A DNA stretch of 57,941 nt from Candidatus Colwellbacteria bacterium CG10_big_fil_rev_8_21_14_0_10_42_22 (GCA_002773725.1 PFAH01000010.1:1-57941), one strand, 5' to 3'; positions 4,214 through 49,586 are shown, numbered from the stretch's first letter. The notes: generated by a model not told the origin, from the letters alone. Numbers and translations: made by a program.

Positions 4214-4753
4214 TTATTTCTTACTTTTATAAACCTTTACTTTAGATGCTCTTAGAACTCTTTCATTTAGAGCATATCCCGTCTCTACTTCCTCCGCTAT
4301 TTTGCCATCATTTTTATCATTTCCTTCAACTGATGTAATGGCTTCATGAAAAGCAGGATCAAAATTATCCCCTTCTTTGGCCTCTATCCTTTCAAGCCCG
4401 TACTTTTTCATCACATTCTCTAATTGACTTTTAATAAGATGGATTCCTTTTTCAACCTGTTTTGACTCAGTTGAGTCGGAGCGAACAGGACTGGCCTTCT
4501 CGAGGGCTAAAATACCTAATTCGAAGCTATCAACGACCCTTATTAAGTCCATCAAGATCTCTGTATTGGCGAATTTAGCAACCTCTTCTAATCGTTTGAA
4601 CTCGTCTTTCTTATAGTTTGAAAGATCTGCTTTAGCTCTTTGCCAACCAGCAAGATACTCGTCGCATTGCCTCTGAAGATCTTTAACCTTTTCTATCTTT
4701 TTATCTTCTTGCCCTGGATGGGCTGAATGGTTTTTGTAATCTTTTTGAGTCAT
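4214..4753 (-). CDS. grpE: Nucleotide exchange factor GrpE
   Basis: [11 protein letters not shown] coiled coil, FDPAFHEA and [14 protein letters not shown] motifs; upstream of dnaK. Confidence 0.95.
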
Positions 4754-4793: not shown

Positions 4794-4863
4794 ACCCCGT
4801 TAGAGATAAGACACCCTAGGTGTCCGACAGTTGTCTTGGAGACAACTTGGCTCTAAACGGGGT
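4794..4863. repeat. REP-like composite palindrome
   Basis: ACCCCGTTAGAG...CTCTAAACGGGGT outer inverted repeat with inner hairpins GACACC-CTA-GGTGTC and GTTGTCT-TGG-AGACAAC. Confidence 0.75.
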
Positions 4864-4893: not shown

Positions 4894-5496
4894 CTACCCC
4901 CTTCCCTCTATAGCCCCACCCAAGGTTTCGTCATCAGCGAATTCTATTTCACCGCTTGAAGGGATACCAATACCGAGGCGCGTTACCTTATCCACAAAGC
5001 TCTCCAACTCTTTAGCTATTTGGTTGGTTATAAAGTCACTTTGAGGAGTTGGATTAAATGCCACCACCACTTCTCTCGCCCGACCACTCAAACTTTTGCT
5101 TATCCACGATTTCAAGCTCTTGAGCTTAAGTTTTTGATCTGCCTCCAACATCCCTCCTCTTCCAAGCTCACCCAACACTAAATATCTCCCCCTAAACTTC
5201 CCCGTATTTTCAATCGACATTAAGTCCGTCTCTTTTTCCACAATAGCGATAATACTTTTGTCTCGAGTGTCATCGTTACAAATATCACAGAGAGAATCTT
5301 TGTTCTCATGGACATAGAAGCACTGGCTGCAAATTTTGGCGGATCTTAAATCACGAACAGAATCTTCTAATTCTCTTTGAAAACCTTCGCCCTGACGAAT
5401 CAAGTGAAAAGCAAGACGAATCGCCTGTCTGGGACCAATACCCGGTAGAGAAGCAAGGATGTCCACTAACCTTTTAATTCCCTTCGGGGTTCTCAT
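4894..5496 (-). CDS. recR: Recombination protein RecR
   Basis: LPGIGPRQAIRLAFHL HhH motif, C4 zinc finger, TOPRIM domain. Confidence 0.93.
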   Translation of the reverse strand: MRTPKGIKRLVDILASLPGIGPRQAIRLAFHLIRQGEGFQRELEDSVRDLRSAKICSQCFYVHENKDSLCDICNDDTRDKSIIAIVEKETDLMSIENTGKFRGRYLVLGELGRGGMLEADQKLKLKSLKSWISKSLSGRAREVVVAFNPTPQSDFITNQIAKELESFVDKVTRLGIGIPSSGEIEFADDETLGGAIEGRG

Positions 5497-6838: not shown

Positions 6839-8193
6839 ACAAAGGGTCCGTATGATGTGTCTTCTATATCGTATCCTAACGACTTCACTTTATTTCTCAA
6901 AGTGTCCGCCTTAACAAACTGTTGATTGTGTCTAATAATCTCTCTTCCACTAACTAGCGTCTTTATATGAAGGGGTGTTTTATACAACTTATCTGCATTT
7001 TTGAGATTTAGACCAAAGACCCTATCCATCTCAAAACATAAATCGCGTCTATCTTCCGGCGATATATCCTTGTCGGTGATAATGCGCCTTAAAATTGCTA
7101 GCCCTTCGGAAATATTCAAATCGTCTTCAATCGCCTCTTTAAAACGTGCTTTATATTCTTTGACTTTATTGACTTTGGTTTTGATACTTTCTTTTTGACC
7201 AACGAACTTTAATCTTCCGAGCTCGCGCCACAAATTCCAAACTGCGTTGTCGGCTCCTTCAATTGAGCGCCAAGTGAAATTTAGTTTTGATTTATAGTGA
7301 GCTCCTAAAACTAGATACCTAAAAGCAACTGGCATAAAACCCTTATTTTCTATATCTCGTAGAGTATAAAAATTTTTTAGAGATTTTGACATTTTCTCAC
7401 CGCCCACAATTAAGTGTTCTCCGTGTATCCAATAATTTACAAATTTTTTACCGGTAACGCTTTCGGATTGGGCAATTTCGTTTTCGTGATGAGGAAAGAT
7501 GTTATCTACTCCCCCGGTATGAATATCAATGGTCTCACCCAAATACTTCATACTCATCACCGAACACTCTATATGCCAACCCGGCCTACCTGTACCCCAG
7601 GGGCTCTTCCACGATGGCTCTCCTTTCTTTTTAGCTTTCCAGAGAACAAAATCCTGCGCCTCCTTCTTGTCATATTCATCCAAAGAAATCCTAACTCCAT
7701 CTCGTACTTTGATGTTTTTGAGGCCGATGAGTCTTCCGTATTTTTTATATTTAGAAATATCAAAATAGACGGACCCGTCTCTGCCTTGATAAGCGAATCC
7801 CTTATCCATTAACTTGCGAATAAGTTGAATCATTTCCTTGATATGATTCGTGGCTAGTGGATAGGTGTGCGCCGGCTCTATATTAAGAGAGGCGATGTCG
7901 TCAAAAAATTCTTTGATATAGGACTTAGTAACTTCTTGCAGGGTTTTTTTCTCACTGATGGCCTTTTTAATAACCTTGTCTTCTATGTCCGTAATATTCA
8001 TTACCTGCCGAACTTCATATCCCAAAAATTCTAAAGAACGCCTCAGAACATCTTCAAAAATATAAGTTCTTAGGTTTCCAATATGAGCAGTATCATAAAC
8101 CGTCGGCCCACAAGTATAGAGCCCAATGGATTTCTTTTTGATAGGTCTGAATACTTCCTTTTTACGTGTAAGTGTATTGTATAGCTTTAACAT
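6799..8193 (-). CDS. cysS: Cysteine--tRNA ligase
   Basis: CGPTVY, HIGN, GRPGWHIECS and KMSKS motifs. Confidence 0.98.
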   Translation of the reverse strand: MLKLYNTLTRKKEVFRPIKKKSIGLYTCGPTVYDTAHIGNLRTYIFEDVLRRSLEFLGYEVRQVMNITDIEDKVIKKAISEKKTLQEVTKSYIKEFFDDIASLNIEPAHTYPLATNHIKEMIQLIRKLMDKGFAYQGRDGSVYFDISKYKKYGRLIGLKNIKVRDGVRISLDEYDKKEAQDFVLWKAKKKGEPSWKSPWGTGRPGWHIECSVMSMKYLGETIDIHTGGVDNIFPHHENEIAQSESVTGKKFVNYWIHGEHLIVGGEKMSKSLKNFYTLRDIENKGFMPVAFRYLVLGAHYKSKLNFTWRSIEGADNAVWNLWRELGRLKFVGQKESIKTKVNKVKEYKARFKEAIEDDLNISEGLAILRRIITDKDISPEDRRDLCFEMDRVFGLNLKNADKLYKTPLHIKTLVSGREIIRHNQQFVKADTLRNKVKSLGYDIEDTSYGPFVWPNRNRKSHPKT

Positions 8194-41708: not shown

Positions 41709-41739
41709 TTTGACCTCCCGGTCATTGGTCTAGGAACTG

Positions 41740-41793
41740 GATTTCAACTCCTATCCCAAACCACATTTATAATCTGGGATAGGAGTTGAAATC
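41740..41793. repeat. Perfect 19-bp inverted repeat
   Basis: GATTTCAACTCCTATCCCA-16nt-TGGGATAGGAGTTGAAATC. Confidence 0.9.
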
Positions 41794-41824
41794 AAGTGTA
41801 GATAGCTTAAAGAACTGTGAATGC

Positions 41825-46551: not shown

Positions 46552-48453
46552 CTATCTTATTTCAAAGGGTATTTTTTTCTTCAAACGAGAGACAATTCTA
46601 TTGAACTCCTCCGTTACTTCGGAGTCCTTGAGAGTGCGTTTATCTGACTGGAAAATAATTCTAAATGTCAGATGTTGGGGGTCATAGTAGTCAATGAGGT
46701 CAACATCCACCACATCCTTTGCTCCAGCGAGGTCTATCTCTGCCAAGATCTCCCCCACAGATACCTGCTGTTTAAGCGCTAGGGAAAGATCTCTAATAAC
46801 AGCCGGATATTTTGAGATGGGTCGATATTCGCGCTCACCTTGCTCCTGACGCATCAGTTCTTCTGCCTCAAGTTCTGCAAAAGCAGTATCTCTTTTTCCG
46901 TGCCAGATTCTACCCAAGACCCTGTTGCTCGTTTTAATAGTTAATTCTTTTTTCTCGGGCACTAGGGTGAAATCGCTAAGCCCTAAACCTTTTAGAAGTT
47001 CCTCAACCGCTCCTTTCAATTCTAAGAATGATTTTTCCGGCTTTGATTTGATAGCCAAACCTAGAGAGAATCGCTCACCCGCTCTCAAGTCAAAGACGCT
47101 ACCTATCTCAAAAAGACGAATTTCGCTAGAGAAGCGTGCGTTGTCTCCTAGGTTTTGTTCCAAATTGTCTGCAAGGGTTTGACGTAAGTATTTTTTATCT
47201 TCAGCTAGGGGTTTTTCAAATTCATAAGCGGTGGACGTCCCATTTTTGGCAAAGACGTAGTTATAAACTTCTGTGTAGCCAATGCCTGTTAAGATGCGTC
47301 TCAATTGATCTTTAAATATGGTGATATCCTGCTCTTTGGCTGGAGTAATACTTATGTGGGGCGCTCGGGACTTCAGCTCATTAATCCCGTAGAGGCGCAC
47401 CACTTCTTCCACCAGGTCTTCGAAAATAGATACATCCCGACGCAGGGGTGGCACTTCTACCATAAATTCATGCCTTTCACTCTTGCTCTTGAAAGGTGTC
47501 TTTTTAAAGCCGAGTTTTTTAAGAGTGTTCCAGGCATCGTTGGCCGAAAACTCAAGTCCGGTTAAACTATTAAACTTATCTATATCGAATCCGATAATTT
47601 CTCTGCTTTGCTTTTTGGGATATACATCTAGACAATCTAATAACTTTGCACCCGCCACCTCTTGAAGTAATGTGGCCGCTCGATTAAGACCAATCTCAAC
47701 AAGCTCCGGACTAAGTCCATGTCCAAACCTGATAGACGCATCGGTAATAAGCCCCAATCTCTTGGATGTTTTATAAATCGCTACCTGATCAAAGTTGGCT
47801 GACTCAACCACAATGGTTCTGGTCTTGGCGCCTATTTCAGCTGGCTTGCCTCCCTTAATACCAGCAATGGCTTGAGCCCTTACCTTGTCGGCTATGACAA
47901 TATCGTCTTTGGATAACTTAAACTCCTGATCGTCTATGGTGGTGATTTTCTCGCCCACCTTAGCGCGTCTCACGTGAATTGCTCCTTCTAATTTATCTGC
48001 ATCAAACGCATGCATGGGTTGACCTATTTCCAACATGACGTAGTTTAAAATATCCACTACTGGAGAAATTGGTCTTAATCCGCAATCAGTCAAGATTTGC
48101 ACCATCCAAGAAGGGGTCTTGTCGTTCTTGCCAAGCTCAAATACGCAAGCGCCGTAGCGTGGACAGTCGTCTTTATTATCTATCTTGATATTAACCAAGC
48201 CCTTTGACTTGGCGGGAAAAACTGATGCTAGTTCTGGCTCTACAAGCTTTTTATCTGTAATGATGGCGTATTCTCTGGCCACTCCTAAGTGAGAAGCAGA
48301 ATCGGCGTAGCGATTATGGGGTATCTCTGAGTCAAAAACACTGCCTGGTGCATCCTCCGTTTCAAAAGCACGCATACTAAGCTCTTCTATGACGTGCTGT
48401 TTACTTCCCACTTCCGGCACTAATCTTTTGATTGAGTTATAAGAGAATTTCAT
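46552..48453 (-). CDS. pheT: Phenylalanine--tRNA ligase beta subunit (no B2 OB domain)
   Basis: GQPMHAFDADK, RFGHGL, EDLVEEVVRLYG and YPAVIRDLS motifs; start at MKFSY. Confidence 0.93.
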   Translation of the reverse strand: MKFSYNSIKRLVPEVGSKQHVIEELSMRAFETEDAPGSVFDSEIPHNRYADSASHLGVAREYAIITDKKLVEPELASVFPAKSKGLVNIKIDNKDDCPRYGACVFELGKNDKTPSWMVQILTDCGLRPISPVVDILNYVMLEIGQPMHAFDADKLEGAIHVRRAKVGEKITTIDDQEFKLSKDDIVIADKVRAQAIAGIKGGKPAEIGAKTRTIVVESANFDQVAIYKTSKRLGLITDASIRFGHGLSPELVEIGLNRAATLLQEVAGAKLLDCLDVYPKKQSREIIGFDIDKFNSLTGLEFSANDAWNTLKKLGFKKTPFKSKSERHEFMVEVPPLRRDVSIFEDLVEEVVRLYGINELKSRAPHISITPAKEQDITIFKDQLRRILTGIGYTEVYNYVFAKNGTSTAYEFEKPLAEDKKYLRQTLADNLEQNLGDNARFSSEIRLFEIGSVFDLRAGERFSLGLAIKSKPEKSFLELKGAVEELLKGLGLSDFTLVPEKKELTIKTSNRVLGRIWHGKRDTAFAELEAEELMRQEQGEREYRPISKYPAVIRDLSLALKQQVSVGEILAEIDLAGAKDVVDVDLIDYYDPQHLTFRIIFQSDKRTLKDSEVTEEFNRIVSRLKKKIPFEIR

Positions 48454-48594
48454 CCGAACACCTAATGAGCTTTTAGGTTCTCGCACGAGAACCTCATAGA
48501 CCGGCTCGACGGAATGCCTGTCTGTTGCTGTATTTTATGCATTATGTTTTTCATATTTCTAACTTAATTAACGAAGCTTATTAGGTGTCCGGAT
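48452..48594. mobile_element. MITE-like 143-bp element with 21-bp terminal inverted repeats
   Basis: Terminal IRs match 19/21; flanked by duplicated ATGA/GA on the minus strand; removal restores TAA-TGAC-ATGAAATTC. Confidence 0.7.
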
Positions 48595-48602
48595 TCATGT
48601 CA

Positions 48603-49586
48603 TTAAAATTGATTTATAAACCTTAAGTCACCTGTGTAAAACATTCTCATGTCCGGAATTTTGTATTTAATCATTGCTAGACGCTCGATACCCATCCCAA
48701 AAGCAAAACCCTGAAATTCACGCGGATTGTAATGAGCAGCTTCAAAGACGTGTGGATGCACCATGCCAGCCCCCATCATCTCAAGCCAATCCCCTCCCTT
48801 AAATCGCATATCAACCTCTACTCCCGGTTCAACAAATGGGAAATAGCTTGGTCTAAACCTTGCCTCTACTTGTTGCTCTTTGAAGAATTCCTCAAAGAAT
48901 TTTTCAATAATGTATTTAAAGTGAGTAAGATTAACGTCTTTGCCAACCATTAGTCCTTCAAACTGATAGAAATTTGTTTCGTGAGTAGCGTCCGTGGCTT
49001 CGTATCGAAAACACCTACCCGGAACAATAATTTGGAAAGGGGGCTGGTGTTTCTCCATATATCTAATCTGAACCGGCGATGTGTGAGTTCTCAAAAGTTT
49101 TTGCTCTTCACCCTTTTTGGGTTTAAGCCAAAACGTATCCCACGCCTCGCGTGCCGGATGCCAGTCCGGAAGATTAAGAGCGTCGAAATTGTAGAACTCG
49201 GTTTCCATCTCCGGTCCCTCTACCACAGAGAAGTTCATGGAAAGAAATATCTTCCTAATATCGCTCTCTATCTTAGATAGAAGGTGGATGTGTCCTTTAG
49301 TGGGCCTATGGCCAGGACGAGTAATATCAATACTGGGAAGTTCTTCTTCGCCAAGTTCTAGGAATTTAGCATCTATTTTGTTCTGTAATTCGTCTCTAAG
49401 CTTGTTTGCCTGACTACCAAGGGTTTTTCTTTCGTTTTCGGATAAATCCTTAAGAGAACGCAAAACAGAGGTTAGCTGACCCTTCCTGCCAAGATATTTG
49501 ACCCTAAGAGCTTCTAATTGGTTTTTATCCTGAACTGACTCTAATTCTTTCGGGTAATCTTTTTTAATACTGTCCAAGTCGGGCAT
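48603..49586 (-). CDS. pheS: Phenylalanine--tRNA ligase alpha subunit
   Basis: HPAR..DTF, LRTHTSPVQIR, FRPSYFPFVEP and FGMGIERL motifs. Confidence 0.98.
   Translation of the reverse strand: MPDLDSIKKDYPKELESVQDKNQLEALRVKYLGRKGQLTSVLRSLKDLSENERKTLGSQANKLRDELQNKIDAKFLELGEEELPSIDITRPGHRPTKGHIHLLSKIESDIRKIFLSMNFSVVEGPEMETEFYNFDALNLPDWHPAREAWDTFWLKPKKGEEQKLLRTHTSPVQIRYMEKHQPPFQIIVPGRCFRYEATDATHETNFYQFEGLMVGKDVNLTHFKYIIEKFFEEFFKEQQVEARFRPSYFPFVEPGVEVDMRFKGGDWLEMMGAGMVHPHVFEAAHYNPREFQGFAFGMGIERLAMIKYKIPDMRMFYTGDLRFINQF

Follow-up and report, generated by a model that had tools for sequence, protein, structure and literature searches.

In a 57,941-nucleotide (nt) stretch of DNA (hereafter the window, whose coordinates are used throughout), a contig of the Patescibacteria (Candidate Phyla Radiation, CPR), we analyzed an element inserted between pheS and pheT. 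With a probability of about 0.8, this element is a fixed, non-autonomous copy, resembling a miniature inverted-repeat transposable element, or MITE, of a NCCCCACACCTAAT family of tiny Patescibacteria elements that makes 4-bp duplications and whose full-length members encode only a GIY-YIG nuclease of 84-86 amino acids (aa). As in MITEs, the element is short (141 nt), contains no transposase gene, is bounded by terminal repeats, has a flanking duplication and an empty site, and has its ends in common with a coding element. An original prediction, made from the sequence of the window, had already proposed a non-autonomous MITE-like element at this place, and the empty sites, the family copies and the coding partner described below support it.

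The element, pheS and pheT are all read on the minus strand, on which the junction is TTT TAA-TGAC-ATGAA-TCCGGACACCTAATAAGCTT...AAGCTCATTAGGTGTTCGGA-TGAA-ATTC; pheS ends in CAA TTT TAA, and the TGAA behind the element is followed by ATTC TCT TAT. Terminal inverted repeats matching at 19/21 positions had been predicted around the pheT start, and a repeat search recovered them as 21-nt arms (48452-48472 and 48574-48594, 90% complementary, 101 nt between them). With up to three mismatches, the arm occurred at only two places in the window, and shuffled sequences predict 0.01. The borders are read most economically as a repeat of 20 nt (T...A) flanked by a duplicated TGAA of 4 bp. With the borders refined in this way, the predicted regeneration of the start codon was retained: the rebuilt pheT ATG consists of the final A of the element plus the TG of the duplicated target. 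The original pheT ATG, formed by the A at 48598 and the upstream TGAA, is now orphaned and begins a mini open reading frame (mini-ORF) that terminates at the TAA built into the upstream repeat. The same repeat holds a CACCT core resembling an anti-Shine-Dalgarno (SD) sequence. An SD-like AGGTG (48459-48463) is found in the downstream repeat, whose last A (48453) serves as first base of the pheT ATG. In the interior, the predicted 30-codon ORF and hairpin were both present, the ORF having its TAG stop within the downstream repeat, 8 nt ahead of the pheT ATG.

We compared this junction with those of relatives. No element was present in L007, L008, L011 and L010, whose PheT proteins are 57%, 59%, 59% and 65% identical to that of the window, respectively. 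In the first three, pheS and pheT overlap (ATGA, TAATG and TGATG, respectively); in L010, they are separated by a 7-nt spacer (...GGA TAA tatcggc ATG AAA TTT...), and its upstream genes, TraG-like and phosphoribosyltransferase, are common to the window. The closest species, L009 (a Patescibacteria metagenome-assembled genome, PheT 76% identical), carries a 141-nt element at the same nucleotide, in gapless alignment with that of the window. The L010 site, CGGCATGAAATT, equals the L009 filled site, taaCGGCATGAA-element-TGAAATTC, minus the element and one TGAA, in line with the prediction that removal of the element and one duplicate restores a short junction. The counterpart of the window spacer TGAC is CGGC in L009 and TATCGGC in the L010 empty site. 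The expectation of a short junction in relatives was thus borne out in the four more distant ones and failed in the closer L009, where the long spacer is shared; since L009 is filled at the orthologous site, the insertion is old, not recent. The simplest history is a single insertion at TGAA within ...TAA-NNNN-A-TGAA-ATTC in the ancestor that the window organism shares with the L009 species. The pheS-element-pheT sequence was also identical on five metagenome contigs. Two further observations were made at these loci. In L010 (1948-2993), pheS is divided into two ORFs (289 and 58 aa), which reflects either a frameshift or a fault of the assembly. Another assembly of the L009 species, JBDREL010000015.1 (L006), has a contig that starts 15 nt inside pheT, adjoining the element site, possibly as an assembly break caused by a repeat or a strain polymorphism at the junction.

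The features of the junction are presented in Table 1; gyrB comes after pheS and pheT.

Table 1. Features of the pheS-pheT junction, in window coordinates.
Feature	Position	Strand	Basis or remark
pheS, 327 aa	48603..49586	-	TIGR00468, E=1.5e-91; stop TAA 48603-48605
Spacer TGAC, the original 4 nt from the pheS stop to the original pheT ATG	48599..48602	-	sequence
TGAA duplication, upstream copy	48594..48597	-	L010 empty site reads CGGCATGAAATT
Mini-ORF, 5 codons, ATG AAT CCG GAC ACC TAA	48581..48598	-	sequence
Element, 141 nt, probable non-autonomous MITE-like copy of the NCCCCACACCTAAT family	48453..48593	-	repeats, duplication, family table
Upstream terminal inverted repeat TCCGGACACCTAATAAGCTT	48574..48593	-	19/20 identical in L009
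30-codon ORF, MKNIMHKIQQQTGIPSSRSMRFSCENLKAH	48462..48554	-	ORF list
Internal hairpin, 8-bp, AGGTTCTC-GTGC-GAGAACCT	48475..48494	-	repeat search
Downstream terminal inverted repeat AAGCTCATTAGGTGTTCGGA	48453..48472	-	19/20 identical in L009
TGAA duplication, downstream copy; TG completes the rebuilt ATG	48449..48452	-	sequence
pheT, 633 aa from ATG 48451-48453	46552..48453	-	TIGR00472, profile positions 160-798

The position of the pheT start is central to this anatomy. Gene callers placed it at a GTG (48486) within the element, giving a protein of 644 aa. The GTG start also appeared in the gene calls of L001, L003 and L004, the ATG start (633 aa) was called in L002, and the NCBI annotation of the L009 orthologue gives 633 aa. 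PheT relatives, all of the named ones from Patescibacteria, measured 628-633 aa at 100% coverage, their N-termini (MKFSY or MRFSY) aligned with ATG 48451-48453, and the 11-codon extension was missing from them. Since these lengths and N-termini fit that ATG, the element occupies exactly the interval from the pheS stop region to the conserved pheT start. By these alignments, the 11 residues added by the GTG call are spurious and the ATG is the true start. PheT of this clade, at about 630 aa, matches its profile only from position 160 on and is without the typical bacterial N-terminal ~150 residues.

Other copies of the repeat had been expected, and the repeat indeed recurs with a consistent 4-bp duplication. 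The exact 20-nt window-type arm was absent from the metagenome contigs and, among 185,579 species genomes, was found only at the orthologous L009 locus. Metagenomes were scanned with a paired-arm pattern drawn from the window's own arms (ACACCTAATRAGC, 90-120 nt, GCTYATTAGGTGT), which returned 16 loci; the estimated chance expectation is below one. A palindromic contig and six copies of a tRNA-adjoining hairpin, all six from human gut, were removed; the remaining loci were elements of 128-144 nt with ends [T/C]CCCCACACCTAAT... We defined the family by the arm core ACACCTAAT[A/G]AGC at both ends and a length of ~128-144 nt (short) or 281-296 nt (coding), a definition that the window copy fits in arm core, size and 4-bp duplication. 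A perfect 4-bp flanking duplication was present in 12 of 16 tabulated family copies (TGAA seven times; TTTA, TAAA, CTAA, CAAA and TTGA once each), and the outermost base pair covaries (T-A, C-G or G-C). A covariance model trained on 11 short copies, that of the window among them, detected one additional divergent copy, in L102 (OBEQ010577890.1); the score of the window copy, 93.8 bits, follows by construction from its presence in the training alignment. Five copies in all were found on a single contig, OBEQ010660369.1, where the four short ones are 84-93% identical to one another. In viral contigs, a single-arm scan gave 83 one-arm loci with no partner arm within 400 nt, only 3/83 matching at 4 of 6 outer bases; we took these loci as chance matches.

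Several other palindromic sequences were recorded during these searches. In the human-gut loci (L098, L103-L106 and L110), a tRNA 3' end is followed directly by a ~138-nt hairpin element whose arms are TTGACACCTAATAAGCGCCGCTC; it has a ACACCTAATAAGCG core in common with the family (model score ~33 bits), other outer ends and no clean duplication. In L095 (Ga0163217_1000059), the match and its flanks form one perfect long palindrome, which suggests an assembly fold-back artefact. In the window, a near-perfect 23-nt hairpin at 41736-41797 (ACTGGATTTCAACTCCTATCCCA / TGGGATAGGAGTTGAAATCAAGT, 16-nt loop) gave the sole other weak match to the element model, which was not significant (E=0.32). Another palindrome of the window, CCCCGTTAGAG...CTCTAAACGGGG, is nested, GACACCCTAGGTGTC and GTTGTCTTGGAGACAAC being its inner hairpins. 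It occupies 4794-4863, where it separates two minus-strand genes (4894-5496 and 4214-4753) and stands just upstream of a promoter-like stretch, TTGACA-17-TATTTT. The original prediction had linked this palindrome to the element through a common motif, and CGGACACCTA does occur in it (4817-4826). As a relative of the element, the palindrome was rejected: its outer repeats are different and it did not match the covariance model. It also had no match in Rfam, at the gathering threshold or at E<=1.

The copies were placed on gene boundaries in a regular manner. Apart from L124, all T-ended copies sat on the ATGAA start of a real gene. On OBEQ010660369.1, each of five T-ended copies reads atgaa-TCCCC...GGGGA-tgaa.., and the A+TG junction of each of them, as well as of the divergent L102 copy, is the start of an ORF of 255-391 codons. 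The five downstream ORFs all matched Pfam families: GDP-mannose dehydratase, DegT aminotransferase and nucleotidyl transferase, all three from profile positions 1-6, glycosyltransferase and GatZ-like. The ORF whose ATG adjoins the L102 copy (271 aa) had no Pfam match. The upstream gene stopped 11-35 nt before the element for four of the five copies, and no long ORF was found upstream of the fifth (L101a). Counting the window and L009 once, we obtained seven independent ATGAA start-codon insertions, all in the same orientation relative to the downstream gene; these start-codon MITEs come so far from two independent lineages only. In six of them (the L102 copy left out), the upstream duplicate ATG heads a 5-codon mini-ORF, MNP[D/H]T and stop, which the window has in common with L009 and the five OBEQ010660369.1 copies. 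A mini-ORF together with an ATG-initiated ORF ending at the TAG of the downstream repeat was a property of all start-codon copies and was not seen in copies elsewhere. C-ended copies were located at other gene boundaries, and in L102 (both sides), L107 and L144 a neighbouring gene runs into the repeat and stops at its TAA. In two full-length copies, L124 (1762-1775) and L151 (10270-10290), the downstream gene, ADK-like and ligA respectively, is in frame with a GTG in the repeat, GGTGTGGGG, at which gene callers start it; the start codon may thus at times come from the repeat.

The original prediction had also pointed to a possible transposase flanked by the same repeat. A longer, coding copy was present on OBEQ010660369.1 (292 nt), with a TGAA duplication and the same 14-nt termini as the short copies there; its protein is a GIY-YIG nuclease, not a classical transposase. 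The ORF (86 aa) starts 2 nt past the upstream repeat, has its TAG stop inside the downstream one, and matches the GIY-YIG catalytic domain only (PF01541, E=4e-17). Nearly all of its 450 protein-database homologues are 84-86 aa long; all source-named ones are Patescibacteria (Parcubacteria, Moranbacteria, Kuenenbacteria and Brennerbacteria), and many lie on short contigs. The nearest solved structures are the UPF0213 proteins 1ZG2 and 1YWL, which have been placed in the bacterial Slx1 family, a minimal form of GIY-YIG (PMC1564403). The six full-length copies examined (~280-296 nt) all had the same ends and were co-oriented with the neighbouring genes; five further contexts are wzm/wzt, aspS-like/ADK-like, degT/wzx, gatA/hypothetical and upstream of ligA. 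The window copy agrees with the OBEQ010660369.1 coding copy at 12/14 terminal nt and, as read from the end table, at 25/32 nt at the downstream end. At L134 (1380-1860), a full-length element with a TTTA duplication splits a degT 3' remnant (..CCGATTTA-element-TTTATCCTGAA..), and an intact, diverged replacement of the degT C-terminal coding segment lies immediately upstream. Small GIY-YIG genes were also observed at tRNA genes. In L009 (7020-7870), two of them (7217-7471 and 7608-7850) stand in tandem, without NCCCCACACCTAAT ends, beside a tRNA upstream of pheS and between 12-nt direct repeats, CGCCCCCGCAAC (7083 and 7856), that include the tRNA 3' end; the pair looks like an insertion at the tRNA. 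In L144 (2330-2760), a small GIY-YIG gene (2424-2684) is inserted in a tRNA gene, its last codons overlapping the tRNA 5' end (GCGCCCGTAG-CTCAG...), with a duplicated tRNA 5' segment upstream.

Several points weigh against the favoured reading of the window element and its family. The exact window-type repeat, TCCGGACACC, was found only at this one locus in two species, and both the arm search and the covariance model found one copy only in the 57.9-kb window, which contains no GIY-YIG gene (tblastn). The interiors of the short copies aligned with five coding copies no better than shuffled sequences (trimmed local alignment), only the last ~12 nt before the downstream repeat looking related (..ENLKAH-stop and ..ASLKTN-stop), and the link between short and coding copies consists of ~14-32 nt per end, the duplication length and the co-occurrence on one contig. 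A clean duplication is missing in four of the six full-length copies (L111, L124, L144a and L151). To our knowledge, an 86-aa nuclease without a DNA-binding domain corresponds to no known type of transposase. Finally, SD-like motifs are weakly enriched upstream of ORFs of the window (24%, with a background of 15%); the SD-like motif supplied by the element may be of little weight.

More ambitiously, these elements could represent a new class of prokaryotic transposable element, a proposal that we regard as possible rather than probable. Such a unit of ~290 bp would encode a Slx1-like GIY-YIG nuclease of ~85 residues that cuts at or around its own repeats and makes 4-bp duplications. Its ends would be portable gene-boundary modules, one with a stop codon and an anti-SD-like core, the other with the SD-like AGGTG and the A of ATG, by which the unit and its MITE derivatives would colonise the starts and stops of CPR operons without polar effects, using the transcription of the operon, ribosomes being passed on by termination-reinitiation. 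From the co-occurrence of the GIY-YIG protein with the elements and its tight integration with their ends, we infer that it may move them. It is somewhat less likely, in our judgement, that a conventional transposase acting in trans mobilises both the short elements and the GIY-YIG genes, the latter being cargo or an independent parasite settled inside. Terminal inverted repeats with fixed-length duplications are a hallmark of DDE transposition, we know of no transposon with a GIY-YIG protein only, and the 86-aa protein is without a recognisable DNA-binding domain. On the other hand, no transposase gene appeared in the gene tables of the loci examined, and the ORF is integrated with the ends in the six full-length copies: where measured, it starts 2-6 nt from the upstream repeat, and it stops inside the downstream repeat (L096b, L124, L144a and L111) or just before it (L134 and L151). 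In addition, the more distant small GIY-YIG genes at tRNA genes also behave as insertions.

To date the insertion, we compared the window with L009 at neighbouring and internal positions. Identity at third codon positions was 51% in pheS and 44% in pheT, and 38-40% at four-fold-type sites. The middle of the element, over 45 nt, was identical at 21/45 positions (47%) and has drifted at the neutral rate. Each 20-nt repeat was identical at 19/20 positions (P about 3e-6), the hairpin block at 20/25, with the stem unchanged and the loop altered, and the stretch surrounding the small-ORF start at 21/31. This contrast is explained by selection, which since the insertion has preserved the two repeats along with the hairpin and the beginning of the small ORF. 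Recent transfer or co-conversion between the two species was considered and rejected as unlikely: there is no conversion tract, and third-position identity in 20-codon bins beside the element is no higher than elsewhere. It is improbable that the window and L009 lineages gained related elements independently at a pheT ATGAA hot-spot, the conserved repeats then reflecting recent activity. The family does have a strong habit of inserting at ATGAA start codons, and the break of the other L009-species assembly 15 nt into pheT is of the kind seen at repeats or strain polymorphisms. Against it stand the equal length of both elements and their gapless alignment, the subfamily-specific changes (CC to GG, in both arms) and the identical hairpin found nowhere else, and a middle that has diverged like synonymous sites, in keeping with one insertion dating back to the species split. 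The window copy is an immobile, selected relic, and its insertion is ancient and fixed.

What selection preserves could also be a small protein gene between pheS and pheT, with the 30-residue peptide as the functional unit, a reading slightly less probable still than independent gain. In both species, the ORF agrees in length, start and stop, and its two ends (MKN... and ...RFSxENLKAH) are conserved. Nevertheless, its central 15 codons are unconserved at both the nucleotide and the amino-acid level, the parts of its coding sequence that are conserved fall on the hairpin and the repeat, and the ORF had no match among protein family profiles; that 15 random codons stay open in two lineages is not unlikely (estimate roughly 0.1-0.2). 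A Phe-rich attenuator peptide was rejected, as the ORF contains a single Phe.

At the RNA level, the predicted fold of 173 nt reached -51 kcal/mol (z = -4.9), and L009 gave the same consensus fold. The predicted 20-bp arm stem includes AGGTG, which lies 5 nt ahead of the AUG, together with the first two bases, AU, of that codon. One weak promoter-like site, not above chance, was found in the element, and the only terminator-like site was on the opposite (+) strand. Very unlikely is the reading of the whole as a locally evolved cis-regulatory RNA, a structured, immobile intercistronic leader for pheT whose repeats are merely stem strands: the strong predicted fold, the single copy in the window and the maintenance of stem, hairpin and small-ORF start in two species while the rest drifts would suit it, whereas the arm core, size class, 4-bp duplications and ATGAA junctions recur at unrelated genes elsewhere, the L010 empty site corresponds to the filled site once the element and one TGAA are taken away, and Rfam gave no match (E<=1, both strands of 48300-48760). 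A regulatory role gained after the insertion is also compatible with a mobile origin.

The original prediction had raised the possibility that the element uncouples the translation of pheS and pheT; its anatomy suggests that a small-ORF relay may instead couple pheT to pheS. For an inserted MITE-like element, we propose the following way of working. The ends of the element would act as gene-boundary modules, offering in-frame TAA stops upstream and AGGTG five nt before the rebuilt ATG downstream. In the mRNA, the paired arms would hide AGGTG and the pheT AUG. Ribosomes that have terminated at the end of pheS could re-initiate 4 nt downstream, on the orphaned ATG; translation of the mini-ORF, entering the upstream arm, would open the stem. 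Ribosomes on the 30-codon ORF would then stop 8 nt before the pheT AUG and re-initiate there, so that pheT expression would be kept tied to pheS translation. Full-length elements would have the same layout, the GIY-YIG ORF replacing the 30-codon ORF, and would use operon transcription while handing ribosomes on. The GIY-YIG protein, possibly a structure-specific nuclease, would act on the repeats and mobilise full-length and short copies alike. Such a hand-on of ribosomes would explain the strict co-orientation, and why start-codon copies keep an ATG-initiated ORF ending at the TAG of the repeat when other copies do not.

We compared the element with known systems. Bacterial MITEs such as Correia/NEMIS of Neisseria, Chunjie of Geobacter and Nezha of cyanobacteria are also small, with terminal inverted repeats, a fixed duplication and a stable predicted hairpin; they too lie inside operons without destroying them, and their ends are common with those of a longer coding element (PMC10969869, PMC3184786). 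In particular, Chunjie is found within operons, and Correia hairpins are cut by RNase III (PMC10969869, PMC3184786). The present family differs in its longer partner, an 86-aa GIY-YIG nuclease instead of a DDE transposase, and in its duplication of 4 bp (TA for Correia, 9 bp for Chunjie). Unlike these MITEs, its T-ended copies lie exactly on ATGAA starts and rebuild them, and the window copy is single and ancient. The Rickettsia palindromic elements are likewise selfish palindromes of ~100-150 nt in compact genomes, with insertions compatible with the host product (PMC10969869). They are inserted in frame inside ORFs and translated with the host protein, whereas the element described here lies between a stop and a start and rebuilds the start. 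The Neisseria REP2 and the inverted-repeat sequences of Borrelia plasmids carry a promoter and are not described with terminal repeats and target duplications; unlike them, the element contributes no more than one base of the ATG, the first, and an SD-like AGGTG, with no promoter above chance. The free-standing GIY-YIG homing genes of T4-like phages (Seg, relatives of I-TevI) are similarly wedged between conserved host genes, whose orientation they share, and rely on signals of the host for their expression. The Seg enzymes, however, exceed 200 aa, have DNA-binding modules and no terminal repeats or duplications, and spread at one locus by homology-dependent gene conversion. The 86-aa protein, with terminal repeats and variable 4-bp duplications at many unrelated sites, does not conform to a homing endonuclease. 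Its best sequence matches, also in size and domain, are the UPF0213/bacterial Slx1-like proteins (1ZG2, 1YWL), for which PMC1564403 describes no inverted repeats, duplications or derivative MITEs. The same work attributes to the GIY-YIG domain an 'extraordinary evolutionary mobility' and raises the question whether such proteins are molecular parasites (PMC1564403). Small GIY-YIG ORFs have also been reported in short insertions of CPR rRNA genes, which are neither group I nor group II introns and not homing-like (PMC11270868); these may belong to the same family as the NCCCCACACCTAAT-ended elements. In the literature, of which our coverage was incomplete, we saw neither MITEs of CPR bacteria described nor elements that sit on start codons and rebuild them through a duplication, nor yet units bounded by inverted repeats whose only product is a minimal GIY-YIG nuclease.

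Overall, the family behind the window copy is a more interesting result than the copy itself. By landing on starts and stops and carrying replacement signals in its ends, a selfish element could be nearly harmless and persist in genomes with almost no intergenic DNA; the insert of the window is even under selection. Such inserts mislead gene callers, as with the 11 excess codons of pheT and the GTG starts in the repeat, and probably break assemblies. The family also gives the abundant 84-86-aa GIY-YIG (UPF0213/Slx1-like) genes of Patescibacteria a testable role, as the protein of a minimal mobile element. If it is true that the nuclease alone drives movement, these elements would count among the smallest autonomous ones made of DNA, and their mechanism would differ from those of the DDE, serine, tyrosine and HUH transposases. 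The hairpins of these inserts may also shape operon expression in uncultivated bacteria.

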